From the sequence record NC_019716.1: a DNA stretch of 44,510 nucleotides; one strand, written 5' to 3'. Source of the stretch: Enterobacteria phage mEp460. The position numbers were made by a program, and so were the translations under genes. Positions 4,339 through 25,273 of this stretch are shown here, in pieces. The notes under the pieces are model-generated. The model ran no database searches. It was not told where the DNA came from and saw nothing but the letters and a program-made list of their open reading frames with translations. Each line of letters begins with the position of its first letter. Within the stretch, counting starts at the first letter, position 1.

Positions 4339-4351
4339 TTCCTGGTTCAGG

Positions 4352-6310: not shown

Positions 6311-6333
6311 ACGTCGCAGACAACAACTCTGAT

Positions 6334-6354: not shown

Positions 6355-6396
6355 TACCTGAAATCAGCCCCTGAACGGGGCTGTGCGGAGACAGTT

Positions 6397-6988: not shown

Positions 6989-6999
6989 AGAGGTGTGGG

Positions 7000-7976: not shown

Positions 7977-7986
7977 GGAGGTGGCA

Positions 7987-8730
7987 ATGACCACACCAAA
8001 TCCACTGGCAAAAACGAAAGGTGCGGGAACGACGTTCTGGATGTACACCGGCAAGGGTGATGCGTTTGCGAACCCTTTATCGGACACTGACTGGCTGCGT
8101 CTTGCGATGGTGAAGGATCTGCAACCTGGCGAAATGACCGCTGATGCAGAAGATGACACTTATCTCGATGATGAAGATGCAGACTGGAAAACGACAACCC
8201 AGGGGCAGAAATCCGTCGGTGATACTTCGGCGACGCTGGCCTGGCGTCCGGGTGACAGCGGGCAGAAAAAACTGGTTCAGTTGTTCGACTCCGGTGAAGT
8301 CTGCGCGTTTCGTATCAAATATCCCAACGGTACTGTTGATGTTTTCCGTGGCTGGCTGAGTTCACTGGGTAAAACCATTGCCTCAAAAGACGTGATGACC
8401 CGCACCGTGAAAATCAGCGGTGTGGGGCGTCCATATCTGGCAGAGGAGGGCACTGAAACTGTGGGCGTTACCGGGCTGACGGTGGCACCGGCATCCGCCA
8501 GTGTCAATGTGGGAGCAACCACCACGCTGACCTTTACAGTAAAACCTGACGGAGCCAGTGACAAAGCGATCAGTGTGCATTCGACAGATCCACAGACAGC
8601 CACTGTGACCCTGAACGGACTTGTGGCCACGGTGAAAGGCGTGAAGCAGGGCAGTGTCAGCATTGTGGGCATGACTTCTGACGGCGATTTTGTGGCAGTG
8701 GCTACGGTGGCTGTCAGCGCCGCAGGTTAA
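7987..8730 (+). CDS. V: Major tail tube protein V with C-terminal Ig-like (Big_2) domain
   Basis: 247 aa; near-colinear with lambda gpV (KGAGTT.W.Y.G.GD..ANPLSD.DW.RLA.VKDL.PGE.TA...DD.YLDDEDADW...GQKS.GDTS.TLAW.PG). Confidence 0.9.
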   Translation: MTTPNPLAKTKGAGTTFWMYTGKGDAFANPLSDTDWLRLAMVKDLQPGEMTADAEDDTYLDDEDADWKTTTQGQKSVGDTSATLAWRPGDSGQKKLVQLFDSGEVCAFRIKYPNGTVDVFRGWLSSLGKTIASKDVMTRTVKISGVGRPYLAEEGTETVGVTGLTVAPASASVNVGATTTLTFTVKPDGASDKAISVHSTDPQTATVTLNGLVATVKGVKQGSVSIVGMTSDGDFVAVATVAVSAAG

Positions 8731-8750
8731 CAGGATGATACTCATCATTT

Positions 8751-8774
8751 GCCCCGGTTATTCGGGGCTTTTTT
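8751..8774 (+). terminator. Intrinsic terminator/attenuator after V
   Basis: GCCCCG-GTTATT-CGGGGC hairpin followed by TTTTTT. Confidence 0.55.
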
Positions 8775-8790
8775 GCAGGTGGAGAATATG

Positions 8791-9177
8791 ATGTTTCTGA
8801 AACAGGGCACGTTTAATTATGAAAAACAGTCCGTGGTGCTCAGTGAGCTGTCCGGGCTGCAGAGAATTGAATATCTGGCGTTTGTTCAGCAGCGAACGGC
8901 AAAGTTTGATGCCGGGGAGGGAGAACTGCCGGAGGCTGAACGACAGATTGCTTTTCTGCGGATGGGGATGGATATCAATGCCTGGCTGGTTTCCCGCTCA
9001 CTGTGGAATGCGGATCAGTCTAAGGATGTAGAGACGCTTTGCGCATCCGTTATTACAACATGGTCGTATGATGCCCTGGGTGCGGGGGCGGAGATGGTTC
9101 TGTCGCTGAGCGGTATGGGGGCCATTGATAATGCCGGGGATGATGAGCATGAGGCGCTGACGCCGGAAAAGTCCTGA
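8791..9177 (+). CDS. G: Tail assembly chaperone G
   Basis: Starts MFLK like lambda gpG, LSELS.LQRIE.LA motif; followed by T in the -1 frame. Confidence 0.8.
   Translation: MFLKQGTFNYEKQSVVLSELSGLQRIEYLAFVQQRTAKFDAGEGELPEAERQIAFLRMGMDINAWLVSRSLWNADQSKDVETLCASVITTWSYDALGAGAEMVLSLSGMGAIDNAGDDEHEALTPEKS
9165..9171 (+). other. Putative -1 programmed ribosomal frameshift slippery site (GGAAAAG) for G-T fusion
   Basis: Only A AAG/A AAA slippery candidate in the 25-nt interval where both frames are open; lambda uses GGGAAAG at the equivalent position. Confidence 0.5.
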
Positions 9178-9185
9178 CGCGGGAA

Positions 9186-9515
9186 ATGCAGTTTGTCATG
9201 CGGCTTGCCCGGGAGTTCCGGCGGGCAGACTGGCGGCGGATGCTGTCGGAAATGTCGGCCACTGAGCTTGGTGAGTGGGGCGATTATTTCCGGATGCAGA
9301 GCTTCAGTGATGTGTGGATGGATGCGCAGTTTGCCTCGCTGAAGGCATTGATCGTGAGAATGGTGTCCGGCAGCAGTGATGCTGCGGTGGCTGATTTCAG
9401 CCTTTTACCGGAAGAGAACGGGATACCGGAGCGAACGGACGAAGAACTGATGCATCTTGGGGAAGGTATTTCCGGAGGTGTGCGTTATGGACCAGATAGC
9501 CAACCTGGTCATTGA
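9186..9515 (+). CDS. T: Tail assembly chaperone T segment (expressed as G-T fusion by -1 frameshift)
   Basis: ORF in -1 frame relative to G; the -1 frame opens at 9153 within the last 8 codons of G; no RBS of its own. Confidence 0.7.
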   Translation: MQFVMRLAREFRRADWRRMLSEMSATELGEWGDYFRMQSFSDVWMDAQFASLKALIVRMVSGSSDAAVADFSLLPEENGIPERTDEELMHLGEGISGGVRYGPDSQPGH

Positions 9516-12500
9516 TTTGGGGATTGATGCGGCAGAGTTTAAAAATGAAATTCCCCGTATCAAAAACCTTCTGAATGGTGCAGCCAGCGATGCAGAACGG
9601 TCTTCTGCCCGTATGCAGCGTTTTATGGAGCGTCAGACTCAGGCCGCCCGGCAGACAACGCAGGCGGCTTCTTCGGCTGCAACAGCCGCATCCGTCCATG
9701 CGCAGACGGTGGAGAAGAACGCACAGGCTCATGAACGCATGTCCCGCGAGGTGGAGAAAACCCGCCAGCGCATGGAGGCACTGAGCCAGAAAATGCGCGA
9801 GGAACAGGCGCAGGCCATGGCTCTGGCGGAGGCTCAGGATAAAGCGGCTGCTGCGTTTTATCGTCAGATTGACAGTGTGAAACAGGCCGGTGCGGGGCTG
9901 CAGGAATTACAGCGTATTCAGCAGCAGATCCGACAGGCCAGAAACAGTGGCGGGATTGGTCAGCAGGATTATCTGGCGCTGATTTCTGAGGTTACGGCGA
10001 AAACCCGTGTTCTTACACAGGCTGAGGAAGAGGCTACCCGACAGAAAGTGGCGTTTATCCGTCAGCTTAAAGAGCAGGCAACCCGCCAGAATCTTTCATC
10101 TTCTGAGTTGCTTCGTGCTAAGGCTGCCCAGCTGGGGGTAAGCAGTGCTGCAGAAGTGTATATCCGCAAAATGGAGCAGGCAGGAAAAGCCACGCATTCG
10201 CTGGGTCTGAAAAGTGCAGCGGCCCGCCAGGAGATAGGCGTTCTGATAGGTGAACTGGCCCGCGGCAATTTAGGGGCGCTGAGGGGATCCGGGATAACGC
10301 TGGCTAACCGTGCCGGATGGATAGACACACTGATGTCACCGAAAGGCATGATGCTGGGCGGGGTTATTGGCGGTATTGCCGCGGCTGTCTATGGTCTGGG
10401 TAAAGCCTGGTATGACGGTCAGAAGGAGGGGGAAGAATTTAACCGCCAGTTGTCGCTGACGGGGCATTATGCCGGAGTCACTGCCGGGCAGCTGTGGACG
10501 CTTAGTCGTGCTATTTCCGGGAATGGTATCACGCAACATGCTGCAGCCGGTGCGCTGGCTCAGGTGGTGGGGAGTGGTGCATTTCGTGGAAACGATATCG
10601 GTATGGTGGCGAGAGCTGCCGCACAGATGGAGCGATCGGTTGGCCAGTCGGTCAGCGATACCATAAATCAGTTTAAGCGGCTGAAGGATGATCCTGTAAA
10701 TGCCGCGAAGGCTCTGGACAATGAGCTGCATTTTCTTACTGCCACTCAGCTTGAGCAGATACGCGTCCTTGGGGAACAGGGGCGGTCCAGTGATGCGGCA
10801 CGGATAGCCATGTCTGCTCTGGCAGAGGAAACCGGTCGGCGTACTGCGGATATTGATAATAACCTCAATGCGCTGGGCAGTACGCTGAAGTATCTGTCTG
10901 ATTTATGGAGTCGTTTCTGGGATGCGGCCATGAATATTGGTCGTGAAGACTCGCTGGATGAACAGATTTCCGCTTTACAGGAGAAAGTGTCGCGGGCGAA
11001 AAGACTCCCCTGGACGGCATCATCTTTTCAGGTTGAGTACGATCAGCAGCGTCTTAACGAGCTTCAGGAGAAAAAACGCCAGAAGGATTTGCAGGATGCA
11101 AAAGAGCAGGCAGAGCGGAATTATCAGGAGCAACAGAAACGCCGTAATGCTGAAAATGCTGCACTGAACCGGATGAATGAAACGGAAGCAGCACGACATC
11201 AGCGTGAAATTGCGCGTATTAATGCCATGCAGTACGCCGATCAGACTGTCAGGGATGCGGCGATACAACGTGAAAATGAACGTTACGAGAAAGCCCTGGC
11301 ATCCGGTAAGAAAAAAACACGCGAAACCCGTAATGATGAGGCCACCCGGTTATTGCTGCAGTTCAGTCAGCAACAGGCACAGGTGGAAGGACAGATTGCT
11401 GCTGCCAGACAGTCAGCAGGCATTGCCACGGAAAGGATGACAGAAGCGCATAAACAGCTTCTGGCTCTGCAGCAGCGCATCAGCGACCTGGACGGGAAAA
11501 AACTGACGGCAGATGAAAAGAGTTTGCTGGCCCGTAAAGATGAACTGATTCAGGCACTGGCGCTGCTGGATGTAAAACAGCAGGAGCTTCAGAAACAGAC
11601 GGCACTCAACGAGCTGAAGAAAAAAACAATTCAGCTGACCAGTCAACTGGCTGAAGAAGAGCGCGCTCAGCGTCAGCAACATGACCTGGATATCGCCACG
11701 GTGGGTATGGGTGATCAGCAGCGGCAGCGATATCAGGTACAACTGAGTCTTCGCCAGAAATACCAGCAACAGCTGGAGCAGTTGAGGCGGGATAGTGAGC
11801 AGAAAGGGACATATAACACGGATGACTACAGAAAGGCCGAGCAGGCGCTGACGGAGAGCCTGAACCGACAACTGAATGAGAATCGCCGTTACTGGCAACA
11901 GCTTGAAGTTGTGCAGGGTAACTGGAAAAACGGAGTCCTGCGTGCATTTCAGGATTTTACCGTGGATGCAGATAATACGGCAGGAACAGCAGAACAGGTG
12001 TTCTCGTCAGCCTTCAGCAACATGGGAAATGGCCTGGCAACTTTTGTCACTACCGGCAAACTCAATTTCAAATCCTTCACCTCTTCTGTGCTGTCAGATA
12101 TGGCGAAAATCCTGGCGCAGGCAACCATGATGAAATCGATAAAAGGGATTGGCAGTGTACTGGGATTTGATCTCAGCAGCCTTTCCCTGAATGCCAATGG
12201 GGGGATTTATCAGTCTGCTGATTTGAGTCGTTACAGTGGCACGGTGGTTAACCGTCCGACGTTTTTTGCTTTTGCAAAAGGCGCGGGTGTGATGGGGGAA
12301 GCGGGACCTGAAGCCATTCTGCCTCTGCGTCGTGGTGCTGACGGTAAGCTGGGGGTTGTGGCGGATATTGGTGGTTCAGGTATGGCGATGTTTGCCCCGC
12401 AGTACAACATCGAGATCAATAACGATGGCACGAACGGGCAGATAGGTCCGGCTGCCCTGAAGGTGGTTTATGACCTTGGGAAAAAAGCAGCAGCGGACTT

Positions 12501-12552
12501 TATGCAACAGCAGGCCCGTGATGGTGGTCGGTTAAGTGGAGCATATCGGTAA
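9487..12552 (+). CDS. H: Tail tape measure protein H
   Basis: 1021 aa, coiled-coil rich; N-terminus (LVIDLGIDAAEF) and C-terminus (INNDGTNGQIGPAALKVVYD) match lambda gpH. Confidence 0.9.
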   Translation: MDQIANLVIDLGIDAAEFKNEIPRIKNLLNGAASDAERSSARMQRFMERQTQAARQTTQAASSAATAASVHAQTVEKNAQAHERMSREVEKTRQRMEALSQKMREEQAQAMALAEAQDKAAAAFYRQIDSVKQAGAGLQELQRIQQQIRQARNSGGIGQQDYLALISEVTAKTRVLTQAEEEATRQKVAFIRQLKEQATRQNLSSSELLRAKAAQLGVSSAAEVYIRKMEQAGKATHSLGLKSAAARQEIGVLIGELARGNLGALRGSGITLANRAGWIDTLMSPKGMMLGGVIGGIAAAVYGLGKAWYDGQKEGEEFNRQLSLTGHYAGVTAGQLWTLSRAISGNGITQHAAAGALAQVVGSGAFRGNDIGMVARAAAQMERSVGQSVSDTINQFKRLKDDPVNAAKALDNELHFLTATQLEQIRVLGEQGRSSDAARIAMSALAEETGRRTADIDNNLNALGSTLKYLSDLWSRFWDAAMNIGREDSLDEQISALQEKVSRAKRLPWTASSFQVEYDQQRLNELQEKKRQKDLQDAKEQAERNYQEQQKRRNAENAALNRMNETEAARHQREIARINAMQYADQTVRDAAIQRENERYEKALASGKKKTRETRNDEATRLLLQFSQQQAQVEGQIAAARQSAGIATERMTEAHKQLLALQQRISDLDGKKLTADEKSLLARKDELIQALALLDVKQQELQKQTALNELKKKTIQLTSQLAEEERAQRQQHDLDIATVGMGDQQRQRYQVQLSLRQKYQQQLEQLRRDSEQKGTYNTDDYRKAEQALTESLNRQLNENRRYWQQLEVVQGNWKNGVLRAFQDFTVDADNTAGTAEQVFSSAFSNMGNGLATFVTTGKLNFKSFTSSVLSDMAKILAQATMMKSIKGIGSVLGFDLSSLSLNANGGIYQSADLSRYSGTVVNRPTFFAFAKGAGVMGEAGPEAILPLRRGADGKLGVVADIGGSGMAMFAPQYNIEINNDGTNGQIGPAALKVVYDLGKKAAADFMQQQARDGGRLSGAYR

Positions 12553-12881
12553 TGGAGACGTTTCACTGGAAAGTGCGCCCGGATATGAATGTGGTATCAG
12601 AGCCGAAAGTGGTGACAGTGAAGCTGGGCGATGGTTATGAACAGCGTCGTGCGGCGGGACTGAATAACCAGTTGTCGACTTACAGCGTGACGATACGTGT
12701 TCGTAAATGTGAACACCCATCTTTAAAAGCCTTTCTGGAACGGCACGGTGGCGTCCGCGCATTTCAGTGGACGCCACCTTATGACTGGAAACCGATTAGG
12801 GTGGTTTGTCGTAAATGGTCGGCAAGCGTGGGGGCGCTGTGGGTAACCATAACGGCAGATTTTGAACAGGTCGTGGCATAG
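12552..12881 (+). CDS. M: Minor tail protein M
   Basis: 109 aa, same length as lambda gpM with METFHWKV...GDGYEQR...WTPPYDW motifs. Confidence 0.9.
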   Translation: METFHWKVRPDMNVVSEPKVVTVKLGDGYEQRRAAGLNNQLSTYSVTIRVRKCEHPSLKAFLERHGGVRAFQWTPPYDWKPIRVVCRKWSASVGALWVTITADFEQVVA

Positions 12882-12890
12882 GAGGCTCTG

Positions 12891-13589
12891 ATGCAGGATA
12901 TTCCACAGGAAACACATCATGAGACGACACGCCTCACTCAGTCAGCCCAGGTGGTGCTCTGGGAAATCGATCTGACAGAGGTCGGTGGTGAACGTTATTT
13001 TTTCTGTAATGAGCAGAACGAAAAAGGTGAGCCGGTTACCTGGCAGGGGCGGCAGTATCAGGCATACCCCATTCAGGGGACAGGATTTGAACTGAACGGC
13101 AAGGGCAGTGCTGCCCGTCCGACACTGACGGTTTCTAACCTGCACGGCATGGTCACGGGGATGGCGGAAGACCTGCAGAGTCTGGTCGGCGGAACGGTGG
13201 TCAGGCGTAAGGTTTACGCCCGTTTTCTGGATGCGGTGAACTTCGTCAACGGAAACAGCGACGCCGATCCGGAGCAGGAGGTGATCAGCCGCTGGCGCAT
13301 CGAGCAGTGCAGCGAACTGAGTGCGGTCAGTGCCTCCTTTGTGTTGTCCACACCGACGGAAACGGATGGTGCCGTTTTTCCGGGGCGCATCATGCTGGCT
13401 AATACCTGCACCTGGACCTATCGCGGTGATGAGTGCGGTTATCACGGTCCGGCTGTCGCGGATGAATATGATCAGCCGACGTCCGATATCACGAAGGATA
13501 AATGCAGCAAATGCCTGAGTGGCTGTAAGTTTCGCAATAACGTCGGCAACTTTGGCGGCTTCCTTTCCATTAACAAACTTTCGCAGTAA
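12891..13589 (+). CDS. L: Minor tail protein L
   Basis: 232 aa, same length as lambda gpL; Cys-cluster C-terminus. Confidence 0.9.
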   Translation: MQDIPQETHHETTRLTQSAQVVLWEIDLTEVGGERYFFCNEQNEKGEPVTWQGRQYQAYPIQGTGFELNGKGSAARPTLTVSNLHGMVTGMAEDLQSLVGGTVVRRKVYARFLDAVNFVNGNSDADPEQEVISRWRIEQCSELSAVSASFVLSTPTETDGAVFPGRIMLANTCTWTYRGDECGYHGPAVADEYDQPTSDITKDKCSKCLSGCKFRNNVGNFGGFLSINKLSQ

Positions 13590-13594
13590 ATCCC

Positions 13595-14338
13595 ATGACA
13601 GAGACAGAATCAGCGATTCTGGCGCACGCCCGGCGATGTGCGCCAGCGGAGTCGTGCGGCTTCGTGGTGAGAACGCCGGAAGGGGAAAGATATTTTCCCT
13701 GCGTGAATATCTCCGGTGAGCCGGAGGCGTATTTCCGTATGTCGCCGGAGGACTGGCTGAGGGCAGAGATGCAGGGTGAGATTGTGGCGCTGGTCCACAG
13801 CCACCCCGGTGGTCTGCCCTGGCTGAGTGAGGCCGACCGGCGGCTGCAGGTGCAGAGTGATTTGCCGTGGTGGCTGGTCTGCCGGGGTGAGATTCATAAA
13901 TTCCGCTGTGTGCCGCATCTCACCGGGCGGCGCTTTGAGCACGGGGTGACGGACTGTTACACGCTGTTCCGGGATGCTTACCATCTGGCGGGGATTGAGA
14001 TGCCGGATTTTCATCGCGAGGATGACTGGTGGCGTCACGGTCAGAATCTCTATCTGGATAATCTGGAGGCAACGGGGCTATATCAGGTGCCGTTGTCAGC
14101 GGCGCAGCCGGGCGATGTGCTGCTGTGCTGTTTTGGTTCATCGGTGCCGAATCATGCCGCTATTTACTGCGGCGACGGCGAGCTGCTGCACCATATTCCT
14201 GAACAACTGAGCAAACGAGAGAGGTATACCGACAAATGGCAGCGACGCACACACTCCCTCTGGCGTCACCGGGCATGGCACGCATCTGCCTTTACGGGGA
14301 TTTGCAACGATTTGGCCGCCGCATCGACCTTCGTGTGA
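13595..14338 (+). CDS. K: Tail assembly protein K (MPN/JAB plus NlpC/P60 domains)
   Basis: HSHPGG JAB-like motif and downstream Cys-His region; overlaps I by 103 nt as in lambda; alternative start at ATG 13739 gives a 200-aa lambda-length product. Confidence 0.8.
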   Translation: MTETESAILAHARRCAPAESCGFVVRTPEGERYFPCVNISGEPEAYFRMSPEDWLRAEMQGEIVALVHSHPGGLPWLSEADRRLQVQSDLPWWLVCRGEIHKFRCVPHLTGRRFEHGVTDCYTLFRDAYHLAGIEMPDFHREDDWWRHGQNLYLDNLEATGLYQVPLSAAQPGDVLLCCFGSSVPNHAAIYCGDGELLHHIPEQLSKRERYTDKWQRRTHSLWRHRAWHASAFTGICNDLAAASTFV

Positions 14339-14883
14339 AAACGGGGGCCGAAGCCATCCGGGCGCTGGCCACACAGCTCCCGGTGTTTCGTCAGAAACTG
14401 AATGAGGGCTGGTATCAGGTGCGCATTGCCGGGCGTGATGCAGGCGAAAATGAATTATCTGCCCGTCTTAATGAGCCGCTGGCAAATGGTGCCGTGATCC
14501 ACATCGTGCCGCGTCTGGCGGGAGCTAAAAGTGGCGGTGTGTTTCAGGTGGTGCTTGGGGCGGCGCTGATTGCGGTGGCATGGTGGAACCCTGTGGGCTG
14601 GCTGGGGGCCGCGGCTGTATCGGGCATGTATGCGGCAGGGGCCAGTATGATCCTGGGCGGAGTGGCGCAGATGCTGGCACCGAAAGCCAGGACGCCCACG
14701 GCAGCCAGTACAGATAACGGCAAACAGAACACCTATTTCTCCTCACTGGATAACATGGTTGCCCAGGGCAATGTTCTGCCTGTTCTGTACGGTGAAATGC
14801 GCGTGGGGTCACGTGTGGTTTCTCAGGAGATCAGCACGGCAGACGAAGGGGATGGTGGTCAGGTTGTGGTGATTGGTCGCTGA
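14236..14883 (+). CDS. I: Tail assembly protein I
   Basis: Starts MAATHTLPLASPGMARICLYGDLQRFG..., ends NGKQNTYFSSLDNMVAQGNVLPVLYGEMRVGSRVVSQEI, as lambda gpI. Confidence 0.85.
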   Translation: MAATHTLPLASPGMARICLYGDLQRFGRRIDLRVKTGAEAIRALATQLPVFRQKLNEGWYQVRIAGRDAGENELSARLNEPLANGAVIHIVPRLAGAKSGGVFQVVLGAALIAVAWWNPVGWLGAAAVSGMYAAGASMILGGVAQMLAPKARTPTAASTDNGKQNTYFSSLDNMVAQGNVLPVLYGEMRVGSRVVSQEISTADEGDGGQVVVIGR

Positions 14884-14943
14884 TGCAAAATGTTTTATGT
14901 GAAACCGCCTCCGGGCGGTTTTGTCGTTTATGGAGCGTGAGGA

Positions 14944-17900
14944 ATGGGTAAAGGCAGCAGTAAGGGGCATACCCCGCGCGAAGCAAAGGACAACCTGAAG
15001 TCCACGCAGTTGCTGAGTGTGATCGATGCCATCAGCGAAGGGCCGATTGAAGGTCCGGTGGATGGATTAAAAAGCGTGCTGCTGAACAGTACACCGGTGC
15101 TGGACAGTGAGGGGAATACTAACATCTCCGGTGTCACGGTGGTGTTCCGGGCAGGTGAGCAGGAACAGACACCGCCGGAGGGATTTGAATCCTCCGGTTC
15201 CGAGACGGTACTGGGTACGGAAGTGAAATACGACACGCCGATCACCCGGACCATCACGTCGGCAAACATTGACCGTCTGCGCTTTACCTTCGGTGTGCAG
15301 GCACTGGTGGAAACCACCTCAAAGGGGGATAGGAATCCGTCGGAAGTTCGCCTGCTGGTTCAGATACAACGTAACGGTGGCTGGGTGACGGAAAAAGACA
15401 TCACCATTAAGGGCAAAACCACCTCGCAGTATCTGGCCTCGGTAGTGGTGGATAATCTGCCGCCGCGCCCGTTCAACATCCGGATGCGCAGGATGACGCC
15501 GGACAGCACCACAGACCAGCTGCAGAACAAAACGCTCTGGTCGTCATACACCGAAATCATCGATGTGAAACAGTGCTACCCGAACACGGCACTGGTCGGC
15601 GTACAGGTGGATTCGGAGCAGTTCGGCAGCCAGCAGGTGAGCCGTAATTATCATCTTCGCGGGCGTATTCTGCAGGTGCCGTCGAACTATAACCCGCAGA
15701 CGCGGCAATACAGCGGTATCTGGGACGGAACGTTTAAGCCAGCATACAGCAACAACATGGCCTGGTGTCTGTGGGATATGCTGACCCACCCGCGCTACGG
15801 CATGGGTAAACGTCTTGGTGCGGCAGATGTGGATAAATGGGCGCTGTATGTCATCGGCCAGTGTTGCGACCAGTCGGTGCCGGACGGTTTTGGCGGCACG
15901 GAGCCGCGCATCACCTGTAATGCCTGGCTGACCACACAGCGTAAGGCGTGGGATGTTCTCAGTGATTTCTGCTCGGCGATGCGCTGTATGCCGGTATGGA
16001 ACGGGCAGACGCTGACGTTCGTGCAGGACCGACCATCAGATAAGGTGTGGACCTATAACCGCAGTAATGTGGTGATGCCGGATGATGGCGCGCCGTTCCG
16101 CTACAGCTTCAGCGCCCTGAAGGACCGCCATAATGCCGTTGAGGTGAACTGGATTGACCCGGATAACGGCTGGGAGACGGCGACAGAGCTTGTGGAGGAC
16201 ACGCAAGCCATTGCCCGTTACGGTCGTAACGTCACGAAGATGGATGCCTTTGGCTGTACCAGGCGGGGGCAGGCGCACCGCGCCGGGCTGTGGCTGATTA
16301 AAACGGAACTGCTGGAGACGCAGACCGTGGACTTCAGCGTGGGTGCCGAAGGGCTTCGCCATGTGCCGGGCGATGTTATTGAAATCTGTGATGATGACTA
16401 TGCCGGTATCAGCACCGGCGGGCGCGTGCTGGCGGTGAACAGCCAGACGCGGACACTGACGCTCGACCGTGAAATCACGCTGCCATCCTCCGGCACCACG
16501 CTGATAAGCCTGGTTGACGGGCAGGGTAATCCGGTGAGCGTGGAGGTCCAGTCCGTCACCGACGGCGTGAAGGTAAAAGTGAGCCGTGTTCCTGACGGCG
16601 TTGCCGGATACAGCGTATGGGGGCTGAAGCTGCCGACGCTGCGCCAGCGCCTGTTCCGCTGCGTGAGTATCCGTGAGAACGATGACGGCACGTATGCCAT
16701 CACTGCCGTGCAGCATGTACCGGAGAAAGAAGCCATCGTGGATAACGGGGCGCACTTTGACGGTGACCAGAGTGGCACGGTGAATGGTGTCACGCCGCCA
16801 GCAGTTCAGCACCTGACCGCAGAAGTCACCGCAGACAGCGGGGAATACCAGGTGCTGGCGCGCTGGGACACGCCGAAGGTGGTGAAGGGGGTGAGCTTTA
16901 TGCTTCGCCTGACCGTGGCAGCGGACGACGGCAGTGAGCGGCTGGTCAGCACGGCCCGGACGACGGAAACCACATATCGCTTCACGCAGCTGGCGCTGGG
17001 AAATTACAGGCTGACAGTCCGGGCGGTAAATGCATGGGGACAGCAGGGCGATCCTGCATCGGTATTGTTCCGGATCGCCGCACCGGCAGCGCCGTCGCGG
17101 ATTGAGCTGACGCCGGGCTATTTTCAGATAACCGCCACGCCGCATCTTGCCGTTTATGATCCGACGGTACAGTTTGAGTTCTGGTTCTCGGAAAAGCGGA
17201 TTGCGGATATCAGGCAGGTTGAAACCACAGCCCGCTATCTTGGTACGGCGCTGTACTGGATAGCCGCCAGTATCAATATCAAACCGGGCCATGATTATTA
17301 CTTTTATATCCGCAGTGTGAACACAGTCGGCAAATCGGCATTTGTGGAGGCCGTCGGTCGGGCGAGCGATGATGCGGAAGGTTACCTGGATTTTTTCAAA
17401 GGCCAGATAACCGAATCCCATCTCGGCAAGGAGCTGCTGGAAAAAGTCGACCTGACGGAGGATAACGCCAGCAGACTGGATGAGTTTTCGAAAGAGTGGA
17501 AAGACGCCAACGATAAATGGAATGCCATGTGGGGCGTCAAAATTGAGCAGACCGAAGACGGTAAGCATTATGTCGCGGGGCTTGGCCTCAGCATGGAGGA
17601 TACAGAGGAAGGCAAACTGAGCCAGTTTCTGGTTGCCGCCAATCGTATCGCGTTTATTGACCCGGCAAACGGGAATGAAACGCCGATGTTTGTGGCGCAG
17701 GGCAACCAGATATTCATGAACGACGTGTTCCTCAAACGCCTGACGGCCCCCACCATTACCAGTGGTGGAAATCCACCGGTATTTTCCCTGACACCGGACG
17801 GAAAGCTGACCGCTAAAAATGCGGATATCAGTGGCAGTGTGAATGCGAACTCCGGGACGCTCAACAACGTCACGATAAATGAAAACTGTACGATTAAGGG

Positions 17901-18357
17901 TATGCTGGAGGCGAATCAGGTCAGAGGTGATTTTGTTAAAACAGTATCCAAATCATTCCCGAAAAAGGCAGGTACGTGGGGTAACACGGAAACACCAGAC
18001 GGGACGGTTACAGTCACCATCAGCGATGATCATAACTTTGACCGTCAAATCATTATTCCGCCCATTATCTTTAACGGTATAGCGTATGACGATCCGGGAA
18101 GTGGTAATAACCCGGGAGGTACAAGGTACACGGGGTATGGTTTTGAAGTTCGCAAAAACGGCGTATTAATCGCATCCAGAGAAACTAAAGGGGCCATTCC
18201 CGGTAGTTACAGTGCGGTTATTGATATGCCGAGTGGCAGGGGAAGCGTCACTCTGGAGTTTAAGGTTTTCCAGAAAGGCAATCAGGGGGCAGGCAATATC
18301 ACCGACTGTACGGTGATTGTGACCAAAAAGGCTGCTTCCGGCATCAGTATTCGTTGA
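14944..18357 (+). CDS. J: Central tail fibre / host specificity protein J
   Basis: 1137 aa, lambda gpJ-like N-terminus ([24 protein letters not shown]...) and fibronectin-III-like middle; C-terminal part read as divergent. Confidence 0.9.
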
Positions 18358-18379
18358 AATATTTATAACCCCAATAAAG

Positions 18380-18404
18380 GGCGTCAGGAATGACGCCTTT
18401 TTTA
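18380..18404 (+). terminator. Intrinsic terminator after J
   Basis: GGCGTCA-GGAA-TGACGCC hairpin followed by TTTTTTT. Confidence 0.7.
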
Positions 18405-18427
18405 TTGCAGAAAAGCGAGAGGTAATT

Positions 18428-19027
18428 ATGCGTAAAGTTTGTGCAGCCATTTTGTCCGCAGCCATCTGTCTGGTCGTATCCGGTGCGCCTGCATGGGCGT
18501 CTGAACATCAGTCCACGCTAAGCGCGGGGTATCTTCATGCCTCGACGAACGTTCCCGGCAGCGATGATCTTAACGGGATTAACGTGAAATACCGTTATGA
18601 GTTTACGGACACGCTGGGGATGGTGACGTCATTCAGCTATGCAGAAGACAAGAATCGCCAGCTGACTCATTACAGCGATACCCGCTGGCATGAAGATTCC
18701 GTGCGTAACCGCTGGTTCAGCGTGATGGCGGGGCCGTCTGTGCGCGTGAATGAATGGTTCAGCGCGTATGCGATGGCGGGTGTGGCTTACAGCCGTATTT
18801 CGACTTTCTCCGGGGATTATCTCCGCGTAACTGACAACAAGGGGAAAACGCACGAAGTGCTGACCGGAAGTGATGACGGTCGCCGCAGCAACACGTCTCT
18901 GGCGTGGGGGGCTGGCGTGCAGTTTAACCCGACCGAATCCGTGGCCATTGATATTGCTTATGAAGGCTCCGGCAGTGGCGACTGGCGCACTGACGGTTTC
19001 ATCGTGGGTGTCGGTTATAAGTTCTGA
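18428..19027 (+). CDS. lom: Outer-membrane beta-barrel protein Lom (Ail/Lom/PagC family)
   Basis: 199 aa, signal peptide, alternating beta-strand pattern, C-terminal aromatic residue (...GYKF); lambda lom position. Confidence 0.85.
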   Translation: MRKVCAAILSAAICLVVSGAPAWASEHQSTLSAGYLHASTNVPGSDDLNGINVKYRYEFTDTLGMVTSFSYAEDKNRQLTHYSDTRWHEDSVRNRWFSVMAGPSVRVNEWFSAYAMAGVAYSRISTFSGDYLRVTDNKGKTHEVLTGSDDGRRSNTSLAWGAGVQFNPTESVAIDIAYEGSGSGDWRTDGFIVGVGYKF

Positions 19028-19053
19028 TTAGCCAGGTAACACAGTGTTATGAC

Positions 19054-19081
19054 AGCCCGCCGGTTCAGGCGGGCTTTTTTG
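19054..19081 (+). terminator. Intrinsic terminator after lom
   Basis: AGCCCGCC-GGTTCA-GGCGGGCT hairpin followed by TTTTTT. Confidence 0.7.
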
Positions 19082-19091
19082 TGGGGTGAAT

Positions 19092-22000
19092 ATGGCAGTA
19101 AAGATTTCAGGTGTACTGAAAGACGGTGCAGGTAAACCGGTACAGAACTGCACAATCCAGCTGAAAGCAAAACGTAACAGCACCACGGTGGTGGTGAACA
19201 CGGTGGCCTCCGAAAATCCGGATGAAGCCGGGCGTTACAGCATGGACGTTGAGTACGGTCAGTACAGCGTTATTCTGTTGGTGGAAGGCTTCCCGCCGTC
19301 ACATGCCGGGACCATCACCGTGTATGAAGATTCCCGACCCGGTTCGCTGAATGATTTTCTCGGTGCCATGACGGAGGATGATGCCCGTCCGGAGGCACTG
19401 CGCCGCTTTGAACTGATGGTGGAAGAGGTGGCGCATAACGCGTCCGCAGTGGCACAGAACACGGCTGCCGCAAAGAAGTCAGCCAGCGATGCCGGCACAT
19501 CTGCCCGTGAGGCGGCAACCCATGCAACCGATGCCGCAGGCTCAGCACGTGCCGCCAGCACGTCAGCCGGACAGGCTGCATCATCTGCTCAGTCAGCATC
19601 TTCCAGCGCAGGAACGGCATCAACAAAGGCCACTGAAGCATCAAAAAGTGCTGCCGCTGCAGAGTCCTCAAAAAGCGCGGCAGCCACCAGTGCCGGTGCG
19701 GCGAAAACGTCAGAAACGAATGCCGCAGCATCACAACTATCAGCAGCCACTTCTGCATCCACCGCGACCACGAAGGCGTCAGAAGCTGCCACCTCAGCCC
19801 GGGATGCGGCGGCCTCAAAAGAGGCAGCGAAATCATCAGAAACGAACGCATCATCAAGTGCCAGTAGTGCAGCTTCCTCGGCAACGGCGGCAGGAAATTC
19901 CGCGAAGGCCGCAAAAACGTCTGAGACGAATGCGGATAACAGCGCACAGGCGGCAGCAGACTCACAAACTGCATCGGCAAACTCCGCGACAGCAGCCAAA
20001 AAATCAGAAACCAACGCGAAAAATAGCGAGGCAGCAGCAAAGAGCAGCGAAACCAACGCTAAAGCCAGCGAAACTAATGCTAAATCCAGTGAAACAAACG
20101 CGGCGAAATCTGCAGCGGACGCACTTAATTATCGCAACCAGGCGCAAGGGATTGTAGGCACCAGCATCGGCCTCGGGGCATCACCGCGTGATTGTCCTGA
20201 TATTTCCGGCAACCCATCAGGGTATATCGGATTTATGCGCATTATGAGTAATGCAAAAGGCTTTCCATCGATTGCATCCGGTGAAAGCAGTCTTACGGGG
20301 TTTATTAGTCAGGTAGATGGAACACCAGCGTATACAGGTGTATTTCAGGGATGGGCTACGCGCTCGCTTTATACTTATCGCTGGAATCCGACAACAGGCC
20401 CGCAATGGACACGCCACGCTCGCAAAAATGAAGTGGACCGTCTTGACCAATGGAATAGCGAAACATGGTTATATAACCATGATAAATCCATGCGCCTGGG
20501 TTTAACCGGATCAACATGGGGGTGTTACAGCGACACACAAAAAAAATGGATACCGCTTGATGTTTCTCATGGTGGCACTGGCGCAAATAGCCTTGATGAC
20601 GCCAAAACTAATTTGCAAATCCCTGAGGGTGGATTAACAAAAGCGATGACCCTTAATGCCCCTGGTGGTGCAGTGGATGGCAAATACTACCCTGTCATAA
20701 TAGACACATCCGCAATGAATGGGAGCGGTGCTATGTTATGTCCTGTTGAAATAAAAACAGCAGGAGGTCCGGCATCAAATCCGCTTAATAGTAACTCATT
20801 TTTTGGGTTCATTCGATGTGGTGGCTGGAGTGACGTTCGCGATGTGGCTTACGGGTCATTTGTTTGCTATGAAAAAAATGAACTCGGGATACTTTGCATT
20901 AAAGCGTCGCAAAGAGATTATGCGCAGCATGTAGCTTTCTACATCCATAAAAGCGCTTTTCCTGTCGTTGTGCAAACTGGCTACAAGGCGAAAGTTAAGG
21001 TTCCAACAGAAGACTACGTAATTGGTGACAACGGGGTTAGATATAAGTTTGGTGTATCAACGTCAACGGAGGATAACGACAAGAACTTTGTTAAAAATGT
21101 TCTTGACTTCACTGGCGGTGAACATGGCTTCTACAGCAACCTTCCGTTCAGACAAGGGGTGTCAGAAAGGATTGCATTAACAAATGGCCTGAGTTTTGAC
21201 AAAAATTTTACCGTCACTATTCCTATATTTGTAAACAATGGTCAGATTAAAGCAACACAATCTTTCACCGCGTACGGTACAGACGCTTCAAACAGAACAT
21301 TTGTTTCTCAAAGATTACAATCCGAAGGAGGTCCGGTTGTCGATCAAACTGAACTAAGGGCCGCTAACGCTTCTGGTGAAATTATTGTCAGGGACATAAA
21401 TAATTCAGGGAACAGTAAGTTCTTTAATTTTAACCTTGATGGTACCTTCAGTTCTTATCAGGGATTGGTTGTTCACACAGGGCAAAACTGGAGCACTCAA
21501 CATACAGATAATGTAAATAAGTTTAAGCCAATAGCAGGGAGCGCAGGCGGTCCTGACGGAACAATGGTTGTTGGCGGATTCCATGCTCAATTTAGCGGTA
21601 ATTACGTCACACAATTCGCCGGTCGCAACTCCAAATTTTGGGCAAGAAGCTTTGAGGCTGGGGTTGATAAGGGATGGAAACGACTATTAACAGTAGACGA
21701 TCTCAATTCATCTACCGATCTTGCTGTCAGGTCATTAACCACATCTAACCCGGTAAAATCTGGCGGAGGGCGAATTGATGTCCTTGGAAGCACGTCAGAC
21801 TATAGCAAAATGGATTGCTTTGTACGTGGGTTTGATAGCACCGGTAATTCTCTCGCGTGGGCGTTGGGTTCATCAGTCGGCGTAAGTAAGATGCTGTCGC
21901 TAAAAAATTTCTTTAGCGGAGCTGAGATACTGTTAAATGGTAATGACGGCGCGGTTCAACTCAAAACAGGTGCTGTTAACGGGGCTAAAGCGCAGGCGCT

Positions 22001-22694
22001 CACTATCAACAAGGATGAGGTTAATTCAACTGTTGATTTAACTCTTACAAAACAAACAGGGACTGGCAATCGTTTTGTTTTACAGAACTTAGGTAATACA
22101 GAACTATCATTTGCCGCAAAAGTATGGGGATCAAGTGATCGACAAAACGTTTTTGAGGTTGGAACGTCTGCTGCGTATCTGTTTTATGCGCAAAAAACGT
22201 CAGCAGGCCAGTTGTTTGATGTAAATGGCGCTATTAATTGCACAACGCTGAATCAGTCATCAGACCGCGACCTTAAAGACGATATTCTCGTTATCAGCGA
22301 CGCGACGAAAGCAATCCGTAAAATGAACGGATACACCTACACGCTCAGGGAAAACGGGATGCCTTATGCTGGCGTTATTGCACAGGAAGTAATGGAGGCG
22401 ATACCAGAAGCTGTAGGATCGTTTACTCATTACGGTGAAGAGTTGCAGGGACCAACGGTTGACGGCAATGAATTACGTGAAGAAACACGTTATCTGAATG
22501 TTGACTACGCCGCCGTGACGGGGTTACTTGTTCAGGTCGCCCGTGAAACAGATGGTCGCGTTACCGCGCTGGAAGAGGAAAACATAACGCTACGTAAAAA
22601 TCTGGCAACAGCAGGCACCCGGATCAGCACTCTGGAAAATCAGGTAAGCGAACTGGTTGCACTTGTCGGGCAGTTAACAGGAAGCGAACATTGA
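19092..22694 (+). CDS. Side tail fibre protein with Ala/Ser-rich repeat tract and C-terminal intramolecular chaperone (peptidase S74-like) domain
   Basis: About 1200 aa; repeat tract at roughly 19440-20140 (KSSETNA-type repeats); C-terminal SDRDLKDDI...KMNGYTYTLRENG motif plus terminal coiled coil; ORF-track GTG start 19086, ATG 19092 preferred. Confidence 0.8.
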   Translation: MAVKISGVLKDGAGKPVQNCTIQLKAKRNSTTVVVNTVASENPDEAGRYSMDVEYGQYSVILLVEGFPPSHAGTITVYEDSRPGSLNDFLGAMTEDDARPEALRRFELMVEEVAHNASAVAQNTAAAKKSASDAGTSAREAATHATDAAGSARAASTSAGQAASSAQSASSSAGTASTKATEASKSAAAAESSKSAAATSAGAAKTSETNAAASQLSAATSASTATTKASEAATSARDAAASKEAAKSSETNASSSASSAASSATAAGNSAKAAKTSETNADNSAQAAADSQTASANSATAAKKSETNAKNSEAAAKSSETNAKASETNAKSSETNAAKSAADALNYRNQAQGIVGTSIGLGASPRDCPDISGNPSGYIGFMRIMSNAKGFPSIASGESSLTGFISQVDGTPAYTGVFQGWATRSLYTYRWNPTTGPQWTRHARKNEVDRLDQWNSETWLYNHDKSMRLGLTGSTWGCYSDTQKKWIPLDVSHGGTGANSLDDAKTNLQIPEGGLTKAMTLNAPGGAVDGKYYPVIIDTSAMNGSGAMLCPVEIKTAGGPASNPLNSNSFFGFIRCGGWSDVRDVAYGSFVCYEKNELGILCIKASQRDYAQHVAFYIHKSAFPVVVQTGYKAKVKVPTEDYVIGDNGVRYKFGVSTSTEDNDKNFVKNVLDFTGGEHGFYSNLPFRQGVSERIALTNGLSFDKNFTVTIPIFVNNGQIKATQSFTAYGTDASNRTFVSQRLQSEGGPVVDQTELRAANASGEIIVRDINNSGNSKFFNFNLDGTFSSYQGLVVHTGQNWSTQHTDNVNKFKPIAGSAGGPDGTMVVGGFHAQFSGNYVTQFAGRNSKFWARSFEAGVDKGWKRLLTVDDLNSSTDLAVRSLTTSNPVKSGGGRIDVLGSTSDYSKMDCFVRGFDSTGNSLAWALGSSVGVSKMLSLKNFFSGAEILLNGNDGAVQLKTGAVNGAKAQALTINKDEVNSTVDLTLTKQTGTGNRFVLQNLGNTELSFAAKVWGSSDRQNVFEVGTSAAYLFYAQKTSAGQLFDVNGAINCTTLNQSSDRDLKDDILVISDATKAIRKMNGYTYTLRENGMPYAGVIAQEVMEAIPEAVGSFTHYGEELQGPTVDGNELREETRYLNVDYAAVTGLLVQVARETDGRVTALEEENITLRKNLATAGTRISTLENQVSELVALVGQLTGSEH

Positions 22695-22730
22695 TATCCT
22701 TCAAGCCCTGAAGGAGGCTGTTCCTGGTAC

Positions 22731-22877
22731 GTTCAGACTGTTGTTGAGCTGGAAATCGCAACGGAGGAAGAAACTTCGTTGCTGGAAGTCTGGAAAAAGT
22801 ATCGGGTGTTGCTGAACCGTGTTGATACATCAACTGCACCTGATATTGAGTGGCTGGAAGAACCAAACACAATGTAA
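22731..22877 (+). pseudogene. 3' remnant of a tail fibre assembly (tfa) gene, no start codon, in frame with stf after its stop
   Basis: Translation [48 protein letters not shown] resembles Tfa C-termini; reading frame continues directly from the stf TGA at 22692-22694. Confidence 0.5.
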
Positions 22878-22880
22878 GCG

Positions 22881-22924
22881 AAAAAGAAAAACCGCAGACA
22901 CGACGTATGCAGGACGTGCTGCGG
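22881..22924 (-). terminator. Intrinsic terminator for the leftward dinI/int transcript
   Basis: Imperfect hairpin CCGCAGACACG...CGTGCTGCGG with a T-run on the minus strand (plus-strand AAAAAGAAAA). Confidence 0.45.
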
Positions 22925-22992
22925 TTGGCTGGTGAGCTTTCGATAGTGCGAGTATTGAATGATTTCCAGCCGTTACCGATTTTACGTGTTAA

Positions 22993-23241
22993 TTAGTGAA
23001 CAAACCACTCGTCAGCAGATTCCCAGGTATCTTTCAGAGTCTCCTGAACAAAAGTTTTTGCAGAATCCTTATCTGCGGTGCGTGTAACAGAAAGGCCATC
23101 GTTGCTGGTGGCTTTTACGATCACCTCTACATCGTCATAACGTTTACTGATGCGTCGGGTTAATTCTTCCTTTAACGCATCCACAGCACCGGTTGGCATT
23201 TTAGTCATTTTTTCTTTGGCTATGCAGATTTCAATACGCAT
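22993..23241 (-). CDS. DinI-like SOS-inducible protein
   Basis: 82 aa with DinI family pattern (MRIE...ELTRRI...[14 protein letters not shown]). Confidence 0.8.
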
Positions 23242-23254
23242 AAAAGTCCCTCTA

Positions 23255-23274
23255 TACTGTGTTTGTATACAGTA
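23255..23274. promoter_or_regulatory. LexA (SOS) box 1 upstream of the dinI-like gene
   Basis: TACTGTGTTTGTATACAGTA matches the CTGT-N8-ACAG consensus, 14 nt upstream of the dinI-like start. Confidence 0.65.
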
Positions 23275-23282
23275 TTATTTTT

Positions 23283-23302
23283 AACTGTATGGATAAACAG
23301 TG
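23283..23302. promoter_or_regulatory. LexA (SOS) box 2
   Basis: AACTGTATGGATAAACAGTG, a second CTGT-N8-ACAG motif 9 bp from box 1, abutting the int stop codon. Confidence 0.5.
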
Positions 23303-24400
23303 TCAAGAGGTCTTATTTCTGCTCCTTTGGAGCTCTTCAAAACGATTATGTAAAGATTTCGGATACAGTTCGGTATATACCTGCCATAGCACGTTTAATG
23401 AACGATGCCCTGTAACCTGGGCGACTTCCTCAATACTAAAACCAGCCTCAAATAAGCGACTTGCCCCTCCTCTACGCAAATCATGGTATCGCAGATCTTT
23501 AATACCTAATTTGCTTCTTACCCTCTGGAATCCCGCAGTAACAGAAGTGCTGTTATATGGAAAAATGAATTCCGATTTTTGGGGCTGTCGTTGGGCGATA
23601 TCCCAGGCTTCCCCAAGCAAGGCTACTTTCATGTGGTTGCCTTCCTTTTTGCGTGGATCTTTCCTGTCTCTTACGAGTATAGATTTTTGTTCCTGGTCGA
23701 GATCTTCCCATCGTAACCGGCATACTTCTCCGATTCGCATACAGGACCACACAGAAAATTTGAGGATATCAACGAACGGAATTTTTGAGCATTTATGAGT
23801 AGATCGTTGTTGAAGGCCTTCAATGAGCATGTCCAGTTCATCAGATGCTGGTCTACGATTACGACGGTTTGATTTTCCAATCAAACCAAGTTTAAGTAGA
23901 TATGGACGAGCACTTTTCGCCGGGTTTGATGTGTAATTAATTCCGTATACAGGTTTGGCCGCATCCAGAACACTGCCAAGATAACTAACATCGTGGCTGA
24001 CTGTTGCTGGACCTGCGCCAGCGTTGTTTCTTAGCCTGCAATGTTCAATTACGTCATTTTCTGTCAGTTCAGATAGTTTGATCGCGGAGATGTCACTATC
24101 CATAAGCAGTTCTAGCACATATCTTTTAGTACGGCCTGCTTTACCTCCGGCATTTGGGTCATTTAAATATTTGTGTAGTAAGTCACGGACTGTAAGTCCG
24201 TCAACTGCATTTGATGATGGAATGCCATATAGATCTAATTCCATCACTTTCTGTGTGCCCCATGTTTTGGCATGAGCATGTTTAGGGAATGTTTTGCTTT
24301 CCCTGTAAGTGATAACACCTTTTTCATTGATAATCACATTACAGCGATAGCGTGGTGTGCCAACGGATTTTAGTCGTTTCTCTATGTTATAGTACGCCAT
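23303..24400 (-). CDS. int: Tyrosine integrase (site-specific recombinase)
   Basis: 365 aa; C-terminal catalytic-type region (HDLRRGGASRL...GHRSLNVLWQVY) typical of phage integrases. Confidence 0.9.
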   Translation of the reverse strand: MAYYNIEKRLKSVGTPRYRCNVIINEKGVITYRESKTFPKHAHAKTWGTQKVMELDLYGIPSSNAVDGLTVRDLLHKYLNDPNAGGKAGRTKRYVLELLMDSDISAIKLSELTENDVIEHCRLRNNAGAGPATVSHDVSYLGSVLDAAKPVYGINYTSNPAKSARPYLLKLGLIGKSNRRNRRPASDELDMLIEGLQQRSTHKCSKIPFVDILKFSVWSCMRIGEVCRLRWEDLDQEQKSILVRDRKDPRKKEGNHMKVALLGEAWDIAQRQPQKSEFIFPYNSTSVTAGFQRVRSKLGIKDLRYHDLRRGGASRLFEAGFSIEEVAQVTGHRSLNVLWQVYTELYPKSLHNRFEELQRSRNKTS

Positions 24401-24701
24401 TACACGACCTCGTTATTTCGGGTTCCCATAAAACGTGGGAACCTGTGCGGGAACCTAACGCGAGAAAAATAGCCTGAAATGTTCAAAAATGCACGATAAT
24501 CCTGAAATACAGAAAACTAATCAAACCAGCGTGATGCCTGAAAAAACTGGCGCTTACTGGAGTTCTCGGTTTAGCATTGCTCCTATGCTCGATAGGATGT
24601 ACCGTTTTTGAAAAACAAATAGTTATATACTTTGTGGGAGCCTATTGGGAACCCGGCGTTTTCATTTCAAGGTGTAATCCATACGCGGCTTAAGAATGAG
24701 A

Positions 24702-24736: not shown

Positions 24737-25273
24737 ATGATGCTTACCCTGGACGAGATAGGTCAATCAGTACGTAACAATATCCAGTTGATTATTGATC
24801 ATGTCGGCTTACCTCTTGCTGTTGGTCCGCTCAGTGATGATGATTACAAGATTCTGTGTGGTGGCTATGGTGAGCTTGAATGGGACTATGCGTTAAGTAC
24901 CTATGGCAACTCCAGAGAAAAGTATGAGTTCTGCATAAAACTTGTTCAGCAAGGTCGGGTTCAGGGAATACCATCAGGAGCAGCAATTTGTGTTTATGGG
25001 GTTGAAGAAAACATCTTTCGTATCCATATGATCGAAAGGTTTTCTAGAGAAGATGAATCTCACCCATTGAAAGGGCGCATGGTTTTACTCACTCTTATGA
25101 GTGCTTTTATATTTTGTAAAGCTGTTGAATGTAAAGTTGTCCACATTGTAGAGCCAGTACCAGAACTGGTGCAGTATTACGAGTCTTTTGGTTTCCGCAT
25201 GGAACAGTGCGGTTATGTGATGTCGGCAGTCATTGATGAGCTGCAGGATATCTTTCTTAAATTTGCTCAGTAG
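24737..25273 (+). CDS. GNAT-fold (acetyltransferase-like) protein, putative; moron
   Basis: 178 aa; C-terminal YYESFGF motif and preceding hydrophobic strand suggest a GNAT fold; opposite strand to int and xis; GC visibly lower than neighbours. Confidence 0.45.
   Translation: MMLTLDEIGQSVRNNIQLIIDHVGLPLAVGPLSDDDYKILCGGYGELEWDYALSTYGNSREKYEFCIKLVQQGRVQGIPSGAAICVYGVEENIFRIHMIERFSREDESHPLKGRMVLLTLMSAFIFCKAVECKVVHIVEPVPELVQYYESFGFRMEQCGYVMSAVIDELQDIFLKFAQ

Follow-up and report, generated by a model that had tools for sequence, protein, structure and literature searches.

Enterobacteria phage mEp460 (sequence record NC_019716.1) was analysed here over a stretch of 44,510 nt, hereafter the window, which corresponds to a whole, syntenic, lambda-like phage genome of 44.5 kb starting at the terminase genes. 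At the end of its tail operon, gene J (14944-18357) is followed by lom (18428-19027) and then by stf, the side tail fibre gene that is the subject of this work; a DinI-like gene and a tyrosine integrase gene come next, both on the minus strand. All features described below lie on the plus strand unless stated otherwise. The stf open reading frame (ORF) extends from the ATG at 19092 to 22694, with its TGA at 22692-22694, and encodes 1200 residues. An alternative GTG start is present at 19086, and the ATG is the start chosen by the Prokaryotic Genome Annotation Pipeline (PGAP) in relatives. Beyond the TGA, the stf frame runs on for 60 codons (22695-22874) up to a TAA at 22875-22877, exactly as laid out in an earlier inspection of this DNA made without database searches (the sequence-only reading). 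We report here that this gene is very probably a mosaic, in which a lambda-type base carries a self-chaperoning tip of the kind used by virulent siphoviruses, and that the short stretch behind its stop codon would be the scar left by the replacement of tfa, the gene of the separate tail fibre assembly chaperone.

The first part of the fibre is of the lambda Stf type. The N-terminal virion-attachment domain phage_tail_N occupies 19092-19499 (Pfam, residues 3-136, E=1.3e-70), and the first 94 residues find their counterpart (E=1.2e-50) in a 'Tail fiber protein' chain of PDB 9e7m that is itself 94 residues long and that we take to be lambda Stf. The domain and its location downstream of J and lom are those of lambda Stf, but of the cognate tfa gene normally found downstream only the last ~48 codons remain. 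When the full fibre was compared with PDB sequences by phmmer, only the lambda N-terminal domain and the chaperone of S16 gp37 were retrieved, and T5 pb1 was not reached by PDB sequence search even with a five-sequence profile; a search of the fibre and of the tfa remnant against NCBIfam returned no match. The distal 717 residues of the fibre (471-1187) match positions 506-1210 of the 1210-position family PHROG 6578 'tail fiber protein' in three stretches (1573 bits). PHROGs already hold this stf-matching family (phrog_6578), together with families of short tfa-tail ORFs.

The attachment domain leads into a shaft rich in alanine, serine and threonine (19440-20140; 36% Ala, 22% Ser and 11% Thr) in which the motif AAKTSETNA recurs. 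The amino-acid autocorrelation of this tract peaks at all multiples of 7 for lags of 7-56 (z ~8-11 versus shuffles, ~10 at lag 7), and the heptad shaft is probably a coiled coil. At the nucleotide level, a 33-nt family coding for AAKTSETNA-like heptads is present in seven copies, five of the six spacings being multiples of 21 nt. Tandem Repeats Finder reported only two short arrays in the tract, the periodicity being seen through the protein autocorrelation and gapped repeat families. One of the motif copies (19908-19940, delimited from IMG/VR loci, lambda and the span of the repeat copy) contains, at its end, the left breakpoint of the mosaic. Lambda and lambdoid prophages match the window over 19000-19933 (blastn; 87% to lambda and 92-97% to most IMG/VR loci). 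Among 80 lambdoid loci fetched from IMG/VR through the stf N-terminal domain, homology is lost at exactly 19933 in 71, as it is in lambda, and resumes at exactly 22732 in 45, shared end points that mark the departure of the window's lineage from common lambda-type arms and not 71 independent events. The DNA between these two points measures 2426-5599 nt among the loci versus 2799 nt in the window.

The heptad tract is not restricted to lambdoid fibres. The fibre of the Tequintavirus slur09 carries the same tract (ANSAKAAKTSETNAKASETAAKTSETNA...) with the AAKTSETNA motif, its short matches of 67-89% being roughly collinear with the window and leading into strong homology from 20166. From these alignments, the tract is a shaft segment common to temperate and virulent fibre families, within which the left crossover is located. 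Further breakpoints are found in relatives within or just past it, at 19480, 19849, 20065, 20234, 20434 and 20612. The sequence-only reading had singled out this Ala/Ser-rich tract as likely to be recombination-prone; its composition and periodicity are as proposed and it holds the left breakpoint with others in or near it, although the independent events are too few for a statistical claim. Long stop-free ORFs also cover the tract in other frames or on the other strand, at 19315-20040 (minus strand, 241 aa), 19489-20157 (plus strand, 222 aa) and 19589-20056 (minus strand, 155 aa). The bias of the GC-rich repeat codons probably gives rise to them artefactually; the annotated orf206b of lambda lies antisense to the same stf region.

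The following segment (20166-22581) comprises the distal shaft, the receptor-binding region and the larger part of the chaperone domain, and by blastn it is homologous to the lateral tail fibres found in virulent siphoviruses. With the Nonagvirus FritzHoffmann (Bas20), the lateral fibre gene aligns over 20193-22581 at 83% nucleotide identity; with slur09, the tail fibre gene aligns over 20166-20438 (88%) and 20567-22574 (74%). These T5 pb1-type fibres display the same collinear order as the window (heptad tract, distal shaft, tip and S74 domain), with 74-88% nucleotide identity over ~2.4 kb and the same SSDRxLK cleavage motif. In contrast, their N-termini are unrelated to the lambda Stf-type N-terminus of the window, and the window fibre also differs from both in the last ~40 residues of its coiled coil. 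T5-like lateral fibres typically bind the O-antigen in a reversible manner (PMC8594841) and, by analogy, reversible O-antigen binding would be the likeliest role of the window fibre. T5-like receptor-binding domains and their chaperone domains have been reported to spread horizontally (PMC11990801). A sister prophage in Escherichia coli KH_005 (L150), 99.5% identical to the window over the head-tail genes, has a stf gene that differs solely at 20434-21732 (1.3 kb), which looks like a recent exchange inside the receptor-binding region between the same arms.

The C-terminal end of the fibre (residues 1057-1200, 22260-22691) is predicted to be an S74-type intramolecular chaperone. Pfam Peptidase_S74 (PF13884) matches residues 1059-1110 (E=1e-12, 48.6 bits versus a cut-off of 22), and the start of the domain displays the serine and the lysine five residues apart that characterise this family: the predicted nucleophile Ser1057 (codon 22260-22262) and Lys1062 (codon 22275-22277), both verified at the codon level. 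Cleavage is predicted between Ser1056 and Ser1057. In an alignment of the C-terminal parts of five fibres (window, Ayreon, PhiR70_1, FritzHoffmann and slur09), the S-S-D-R-x-L-K motif and most of the next 100 residues are invariant. A profile built from this alignment retrieved from the PDB the intramolecular chaperone of S16 gp37 (6f45, E=3e-9) and the autoprocessing domain of the eukaryotic protein MYRF (7dc3, E=6e-3), along with a weak match (E=0.84) to the neck appendage of GA-1 (3gud). The segment S1057-D-R-D-L-K1062 aligns with SDRRIK of the S16 gp37 stretch 'SSDRRIKKDI' and with ADLRAK of the MYRF chain, in which an alanine, presumably the mutated nucleophile, stands opposite Ser1057 and a lysine five residues on stands opposite Lys1062.

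The domain lies at the extreme C-terminus (residues 1057-1200 of 1200) and ends in a helix at residues ~1125-1195 (22464-22676), as predicted by single-sequence AlphaFold2 (AF2) with a predicted local distance difference test score (pLDDT) above 90 at residues ~1160-1190. The last ~45 residues (profile positions 121-164) match trimeric coiled coils in the PDB, such as P22 gp26 and reovirus sigma-1. Both the S74-like module and the C-terminal coiled coil had been proposed in the sequence-only reading and are borne out by these profile matches, the conserved dyad and the predicted helix. The tip of the K1F fibre carries an S74 chaperone. As in the endosialidase-type chaperones (K1F endoNF, S16 gp37, GA-1 neck appendage and MYRF), the window fibre combines a Pfam match, the Ser/Lys dyad, a terminal helical coil and the location at the extreme C-terminus; this likeness is at the sequence level, and the preceding fibre domain is unrelated to endosialidase.

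Downstream of the stf stop codon, two segments can be distinguished. The first is a linker of 37 nt (22695-22731) that matches no intact tfa, and the second is a tfa 3' remnant (22732-22877) that corresponds to the conserved C-terminal domain of Tfa. The core of the remnant (22732-22854) is common to intact tfa genes and is 91% identical to lambda tfa at the nucleotide level. In the 60-codon peptide, residues 14-57 match positions 87-130 of the 131 positions of Pfam Caudo_TAP (E=5.4e-18), and tblastn with an intact Tfa aligns only its residues 147-194, to 22731-22874 with 79% identity (E=4e-20), in keeping with the tfa similarity that the sequence-only reading had expected there. Its broader claim that the frame after the stop translates into a Tfa C-terminus stands for the part covering the last 44 positions of Caudo_TAP and falls for the first 37 nt, homology starting at 22731/22732. 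While the conserved C-terminal helical domain of Tfa is present, its variable N-terminal fibre-binding domain (profile positions 1-86) is absent, and so is a separate ORF provided with a start codon. No ATG, GTG or TTG start giving at least 40 residues was found in the remnant, and tblastn with an intact Tfa found no other tfa copy in the 44.5-kb genome. In relatives, the remnant already has a PGAP entry as a partial pseudogene of tfa ('incomplete; missing N-terminus'). An intact tfa allele with the lead-in 'SWYVQTVVE' of the remnant was sought among 150 loci and none was found.

The extent of the replacement is delimited by comparison with L041, an IMG/VR prophage in which lom is followed by a conventional stf of 1079 residues with a His-rich tip, an intact tfa of 194 residues (...DIEWPEEPDTM), the DinI gene, the same integrase and dusA. 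L041 matches the window at 19000-19933 and 22732-23400 (96% over the latter), so that window 19934-22731 stands in place of two-thirds of a conventional stf, at its 3' side, together with the first ~146 codons of tfa (about three-quarters). Across position 19933, the window reads ...NSAKAAKTSETNA followed by DNSAQ..., whereas L041 reads ...NSAKAAKTSETNA followed by RSSET.... The window thus shares with the Ur-lambda Stf+Tfa module, of which L041 is an example, the position after J and lom, the N-terminal domain, the first part of the heptad shaft and the 3' end of tfa. It differs from the conventional lambdoid fibre in that a tip with its own chaperone and the last ~48 tfa codons take the place of a His-rich tip and a separate 194-residue Tfa. 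Matching flanks around a T5-/9g-like middle part agree with the recombination scar envisaged in the sequence-only reading, where a new tip had replaced the stf 3' end and most of tfa.

The right junction was further investigated by searching IMG/VR with the exact last 24 nt of stf, which returned 61 loci, 49 of them with downstream sequence. The post-stop junction is identical in all 49 informative loci, with two polymorphic sites in the linker, and this common post-stop sequence indicates a single origin. The frame of the remnant is open in 47 of the 48 junction-sharing loci and shifted in the remaining one. At least eight different C-terminal tfa tails are found among the loci, including ...WPAVPVME, ...WPTNPVRE, ...WPALP, ...WPEEPDTM, ...WPVAPIG and ...VNPVWPPPSKR. 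They belong to types found in intact tfa alleles, such as ...WPAVPVME in lambda and ...WPEEPDTM in L041. In the 40 loci (window included) with at least 500 nt past the remnant, 11 unrelated downstream clusters were found and the tail allele co-varies with the cluster, so that crossovers must have taken place repeatedly inside the ~123-nt remnant. The same chaperone domain, junction and remnant are present behind fibres of 1083-1260 residues whose middle, receptor-binding parts differ. As judged from these patterns, the fibre tip is a mobile cassette and the remnant acts as its homology arm on the right. According to a passage of PMC9608196 that cites North 2019, the Tfa family combines a variable, fibre-binding N-domain with a conserved, helical C-domain serving as trimerisation module; on that description, the tfa 3' end would be conserved enough to act as a recombination arm.

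Other truncated or duplicated tfa ends were observed during this work. PhiR49_2 (L008, 3562-4300) has an independent tfa 3' remnant starting at the equivalent of window 22745 and followed by the same DinI gene. It lies behind a different stf of 687 residues and two small ORFs, with which it is out of frame (frame established by hand). Unannotated tfa-tail fragments are also present in the lambda-like phages 2G7b, ev243, HannyBb, 1W and 4A7. A second same-strand tfa 3' copy is found 1-3 kb downstream in some loci (L002, i.e. E. coli N61, 6881-9658; L021, L032, L045, L066 and L087). In N61, pinR, ydfK and a methyltransferase gene lie between the two copies, an arrangement reminiscent of remnants of Pin-type invertible fibre segments. 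Moreover, 12 of the 61 IMG/VR contigs (L094, L098, L104, L118, L122, L124, L128, L130, L134, L138, L139 and L143) have the stop codon of stf as their very end. With nothing called in the remnant, this is apparently where prophage boundary callers make their cut, and such cuts would conceal both the remnant and the true right end of the prophage.

The arrangement is widespread. An S74-tipped Stf with identical junction, remnant and chaperone domain is found in the isolated lambdoid phages Ayreon (MF807953) and PhiR70_1 (PV340577), and in prophages of E. coli N61 and Q5 the entire gene shares 97-99% identity with that of the window. In Ayreon, PhiR70_1 and the KH_005 sister prophage, the receptor-binding middle segments differ from that of the window. 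The region 22380-22800, which includes chaperone domain, stop, linker and remnant, is covered over at least 80% of its length in 802 of 5426 complete E. coli genomes (~15%), with a median of two copies, and the match spans the junction in 802 of the 810 matching genomes. From this distribution, the arrangement is old and shared, and neither recent nor specific to mEp460. In E. coli prophages, RefSeq names the protein 'prophage tail fiber N-terminal domain and S74 family endopeptidase-containing protein'. A literature search for this specific junction found no paper describing it. The feature as such is common, has been annotated before and agrees with the classical mosaicism of phages, and it does not constitute a new kind of system. 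What is added here is modest: the breakpoints are placed exactly, the shared heptad tract is recognised as left arm, and use of the tfa remnant as right arm is directly evidenced.

Taken together, these data favour, with a probability of roughly 85%, a mosaic fibre composed of a lambda-type base and a chaperone tip of the T5-/9g-like kind, with the tfa remnant as the scar of a cassette replacement. The N-terminal ~100 residues would dock the trimer on the lambda-type tail tip and be followed by the heptad Ala/Ser shaft, while the distal shaft, receptor-binding tip and C-terminal chaperone would be of the kind used in the lateral fibres of T5-like and 9g-like virulent siphoviruses. The chaperone domain would trimerise via its terminal coiled coil and nucleate or template the folding of the preceding fibre. 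Self-cleavage between Ser1056 and Ser1057 by the Ser1057/Lys1062 dyad would release a mature fibre of ~110 kDa and a discarded fragment of ~16 kDa (computed masses). The phage lacks a separate Tfa chaperone and would no longer need one. Positions 22732-22877 (146 nt) would represent the untranslated 3' end of the displaced tfa and the right-hand scar of the replacement. The left crossover would have taken place at 19933, within the heptad tract that both fibre types share; the right join, 37 nt past the new stop, would have been illegitimate. This junction would have arisen once, the remnant (~90% identical to intact tfa 3' ends) acting since then as a passive homology arm through which the chaperone-tipped cassette, in several receptor-binding versions, would have been exchanged among many lambdoid prophages.

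Several points weigh against this reading. A search for the donor of 22582-22731, i.e. the lambdoid-type end of the coil (last ~40 residues) plus the linker, turned up only the same junction, and the right join can for that reason be placed only within ~15 nt. The single-sequence AF2 model of residues 1000-1200 has a mean pLDDT of 45 and is informative for the terminal helix only. Autocleavage, trimerisation and Tfa independence of the fibre are properties that we infer from homology. Finally, the receptor-binding region may have moved from virulent to temperate phages or the reverse.

Among the alternatives, a two-step origin fares best while being unlikely. In such a scenario, a chaperone-tipped 3' part would have joined upstream of an intact tfa, which a separate, later deletion would have truncated. 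The data leave the number of steps unfixed and the 37-nt linker could be the residue of a longer intermediate. However, a chaperone domain combined with a longer or intact tfa was seen neither in the 49 informative IMG/VR loci nor in the 802 of 810 E. coli genomes that span the junction, and the outcome and present function would be the same either way. It is far less probable that the fibre gene is a non-functional relic, in which a T5-type tip fails to assemble on a lambda-type base and the loss of tfa reflects module decay. The stf gene of laboratory lambda is itself frameshifted (two annotated ORFs), but the 1200-residue ORF is intact in the window, a complete syntenic genome, and in at least 81 complete genomes with 95-99% identity. 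Its catalytic residues are conserved, and this architecture also occurs in Ayreon and PhiR70_1, both of them isolated phages. In addition, an engineered lambda-K1F Stf chimera, in which the K1F tail fibre is fused to the N-terminal part of lambda Stf, is functional and delivers DNA into a K1-encapsulated strain (PMC11338833).

Least credible is an expression of the remnant to aid fibre assembly, through read-through of the stf TGA that would add the Tfa trimerisation helix or as a 32-residue peptide started at TTG 22779: the shared and mostly intact frame, the TGA as stop codon, a Shine-Dalgarno-like GGAGG ~11 nt upstream of this in-frame TTG and the multimerisation helix ascribed to the Tfa C-domain in the passage cited above would fit, but a match of frames has a one-in-three chance and goes back to a single ancestral event inherited by every relative, an open frame is expected anyway from variation imported by recombination from intact tfa alleles, both linker polymorphisms change the amino acid (P/S and W/R), the 'EWP' proline of common tail alleles is a leucine in the window and a threonine in one relative, one locus is frameshifted, any extension would be discarded along with the cleaved chaperone domain, the independent PhiR49_2 remnant is out of frame with its upstream ORF, and the GGAGG belongs to Thr-Glu-Glu codons present in every tfa. 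The in-frame continuation, to which the sequence-only reading had drawn attention, most likely carries no meaning, the shared frame being a coincidence.

For the mosaic fibre as proposed here, a stronger claim would be that the 123-nt tfa 3' end is kept because it bounds a system for exchanging fibre tips on the right, as the heptad tract does on the left, and this we consider doubtful. If it were true, homologous recombination could bring Tfa-independent, chaperone-tipped cassettes from virulent T5-/9g-like phages into any lambdoid prophage, and prophages losing the tfa 3' end would leave the exchange pool. Irrespective of this, the locus offers a clean and well-bounded example of host-range determinants common to temperate and virulent coliphages. 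For genome annotation, a short 'tail fiber assembly protein' fragment behind an S74-tipped stf is best treated as a pseudogene. For engineering, position 19933 in the heptad tract, or a position after the AAKTSETNA motif, may be used as tolerated fusion sites for lambda Stf chimeras that do without a chaperone gene.

Regarding the neighbourhood of stf, a terminator-like hairpin is present in the gap between lom and stf (19054-19075). It was detected by a pattern scan (8 stem pairs and a T run), and a terminator is annotated at the equivalent spot in Ayreon. On the right side, the DinI-like gene (22993-23241, minus strand; Pfam DinI, E=1e-19) is the one found behind the intact tfa of L041. Between the tfa remnant and this DinI gene's end, a non-coding segment (22889-22990) is 82-96% conserved in many lambdoid and Shiga toxin-converting phages, where its homologues are mostly unannotated and located near the genome end or the phage attachment site (attP). 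By eye, it contains on the minus strand a GC-rich hairpin followed by a T run, which the pattern scan did not flag and which is possibly the DinI terminator.

The tyrosine integrase gene (23303-24400, minus strand; Pfam Phage_integrase) is dusA-specific by context, since it adjoins dusA in Q5, KH_005 and L041. The attP region contains a surrogate dusA 5' end at 24489-24590. There, a 40-codon ORF (24489-24611) copies the first ~34 residues of DusA, so that this surrogate 5' end lies in attP beside the integrase gene. E. coli KH_005 has a prophage inserted at dusA in which window 24486-44510 runs directly on into window 1-19100, from which it follows that the window is a circular permutation of one prophage. 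The possibility that the DNA past the integrase gene forms a second, tandem island at dusA was considered and rejected, the window being a circularly permuted single prophage. Directly past attP, an ORF of 178 residues (24737-25273) gave no match in searches against Pfam and PADLOC. The corresponding slot in KH_005 contains a Panacea-domain protein and hypothetical proteins, and the site is a variable accessory slot.

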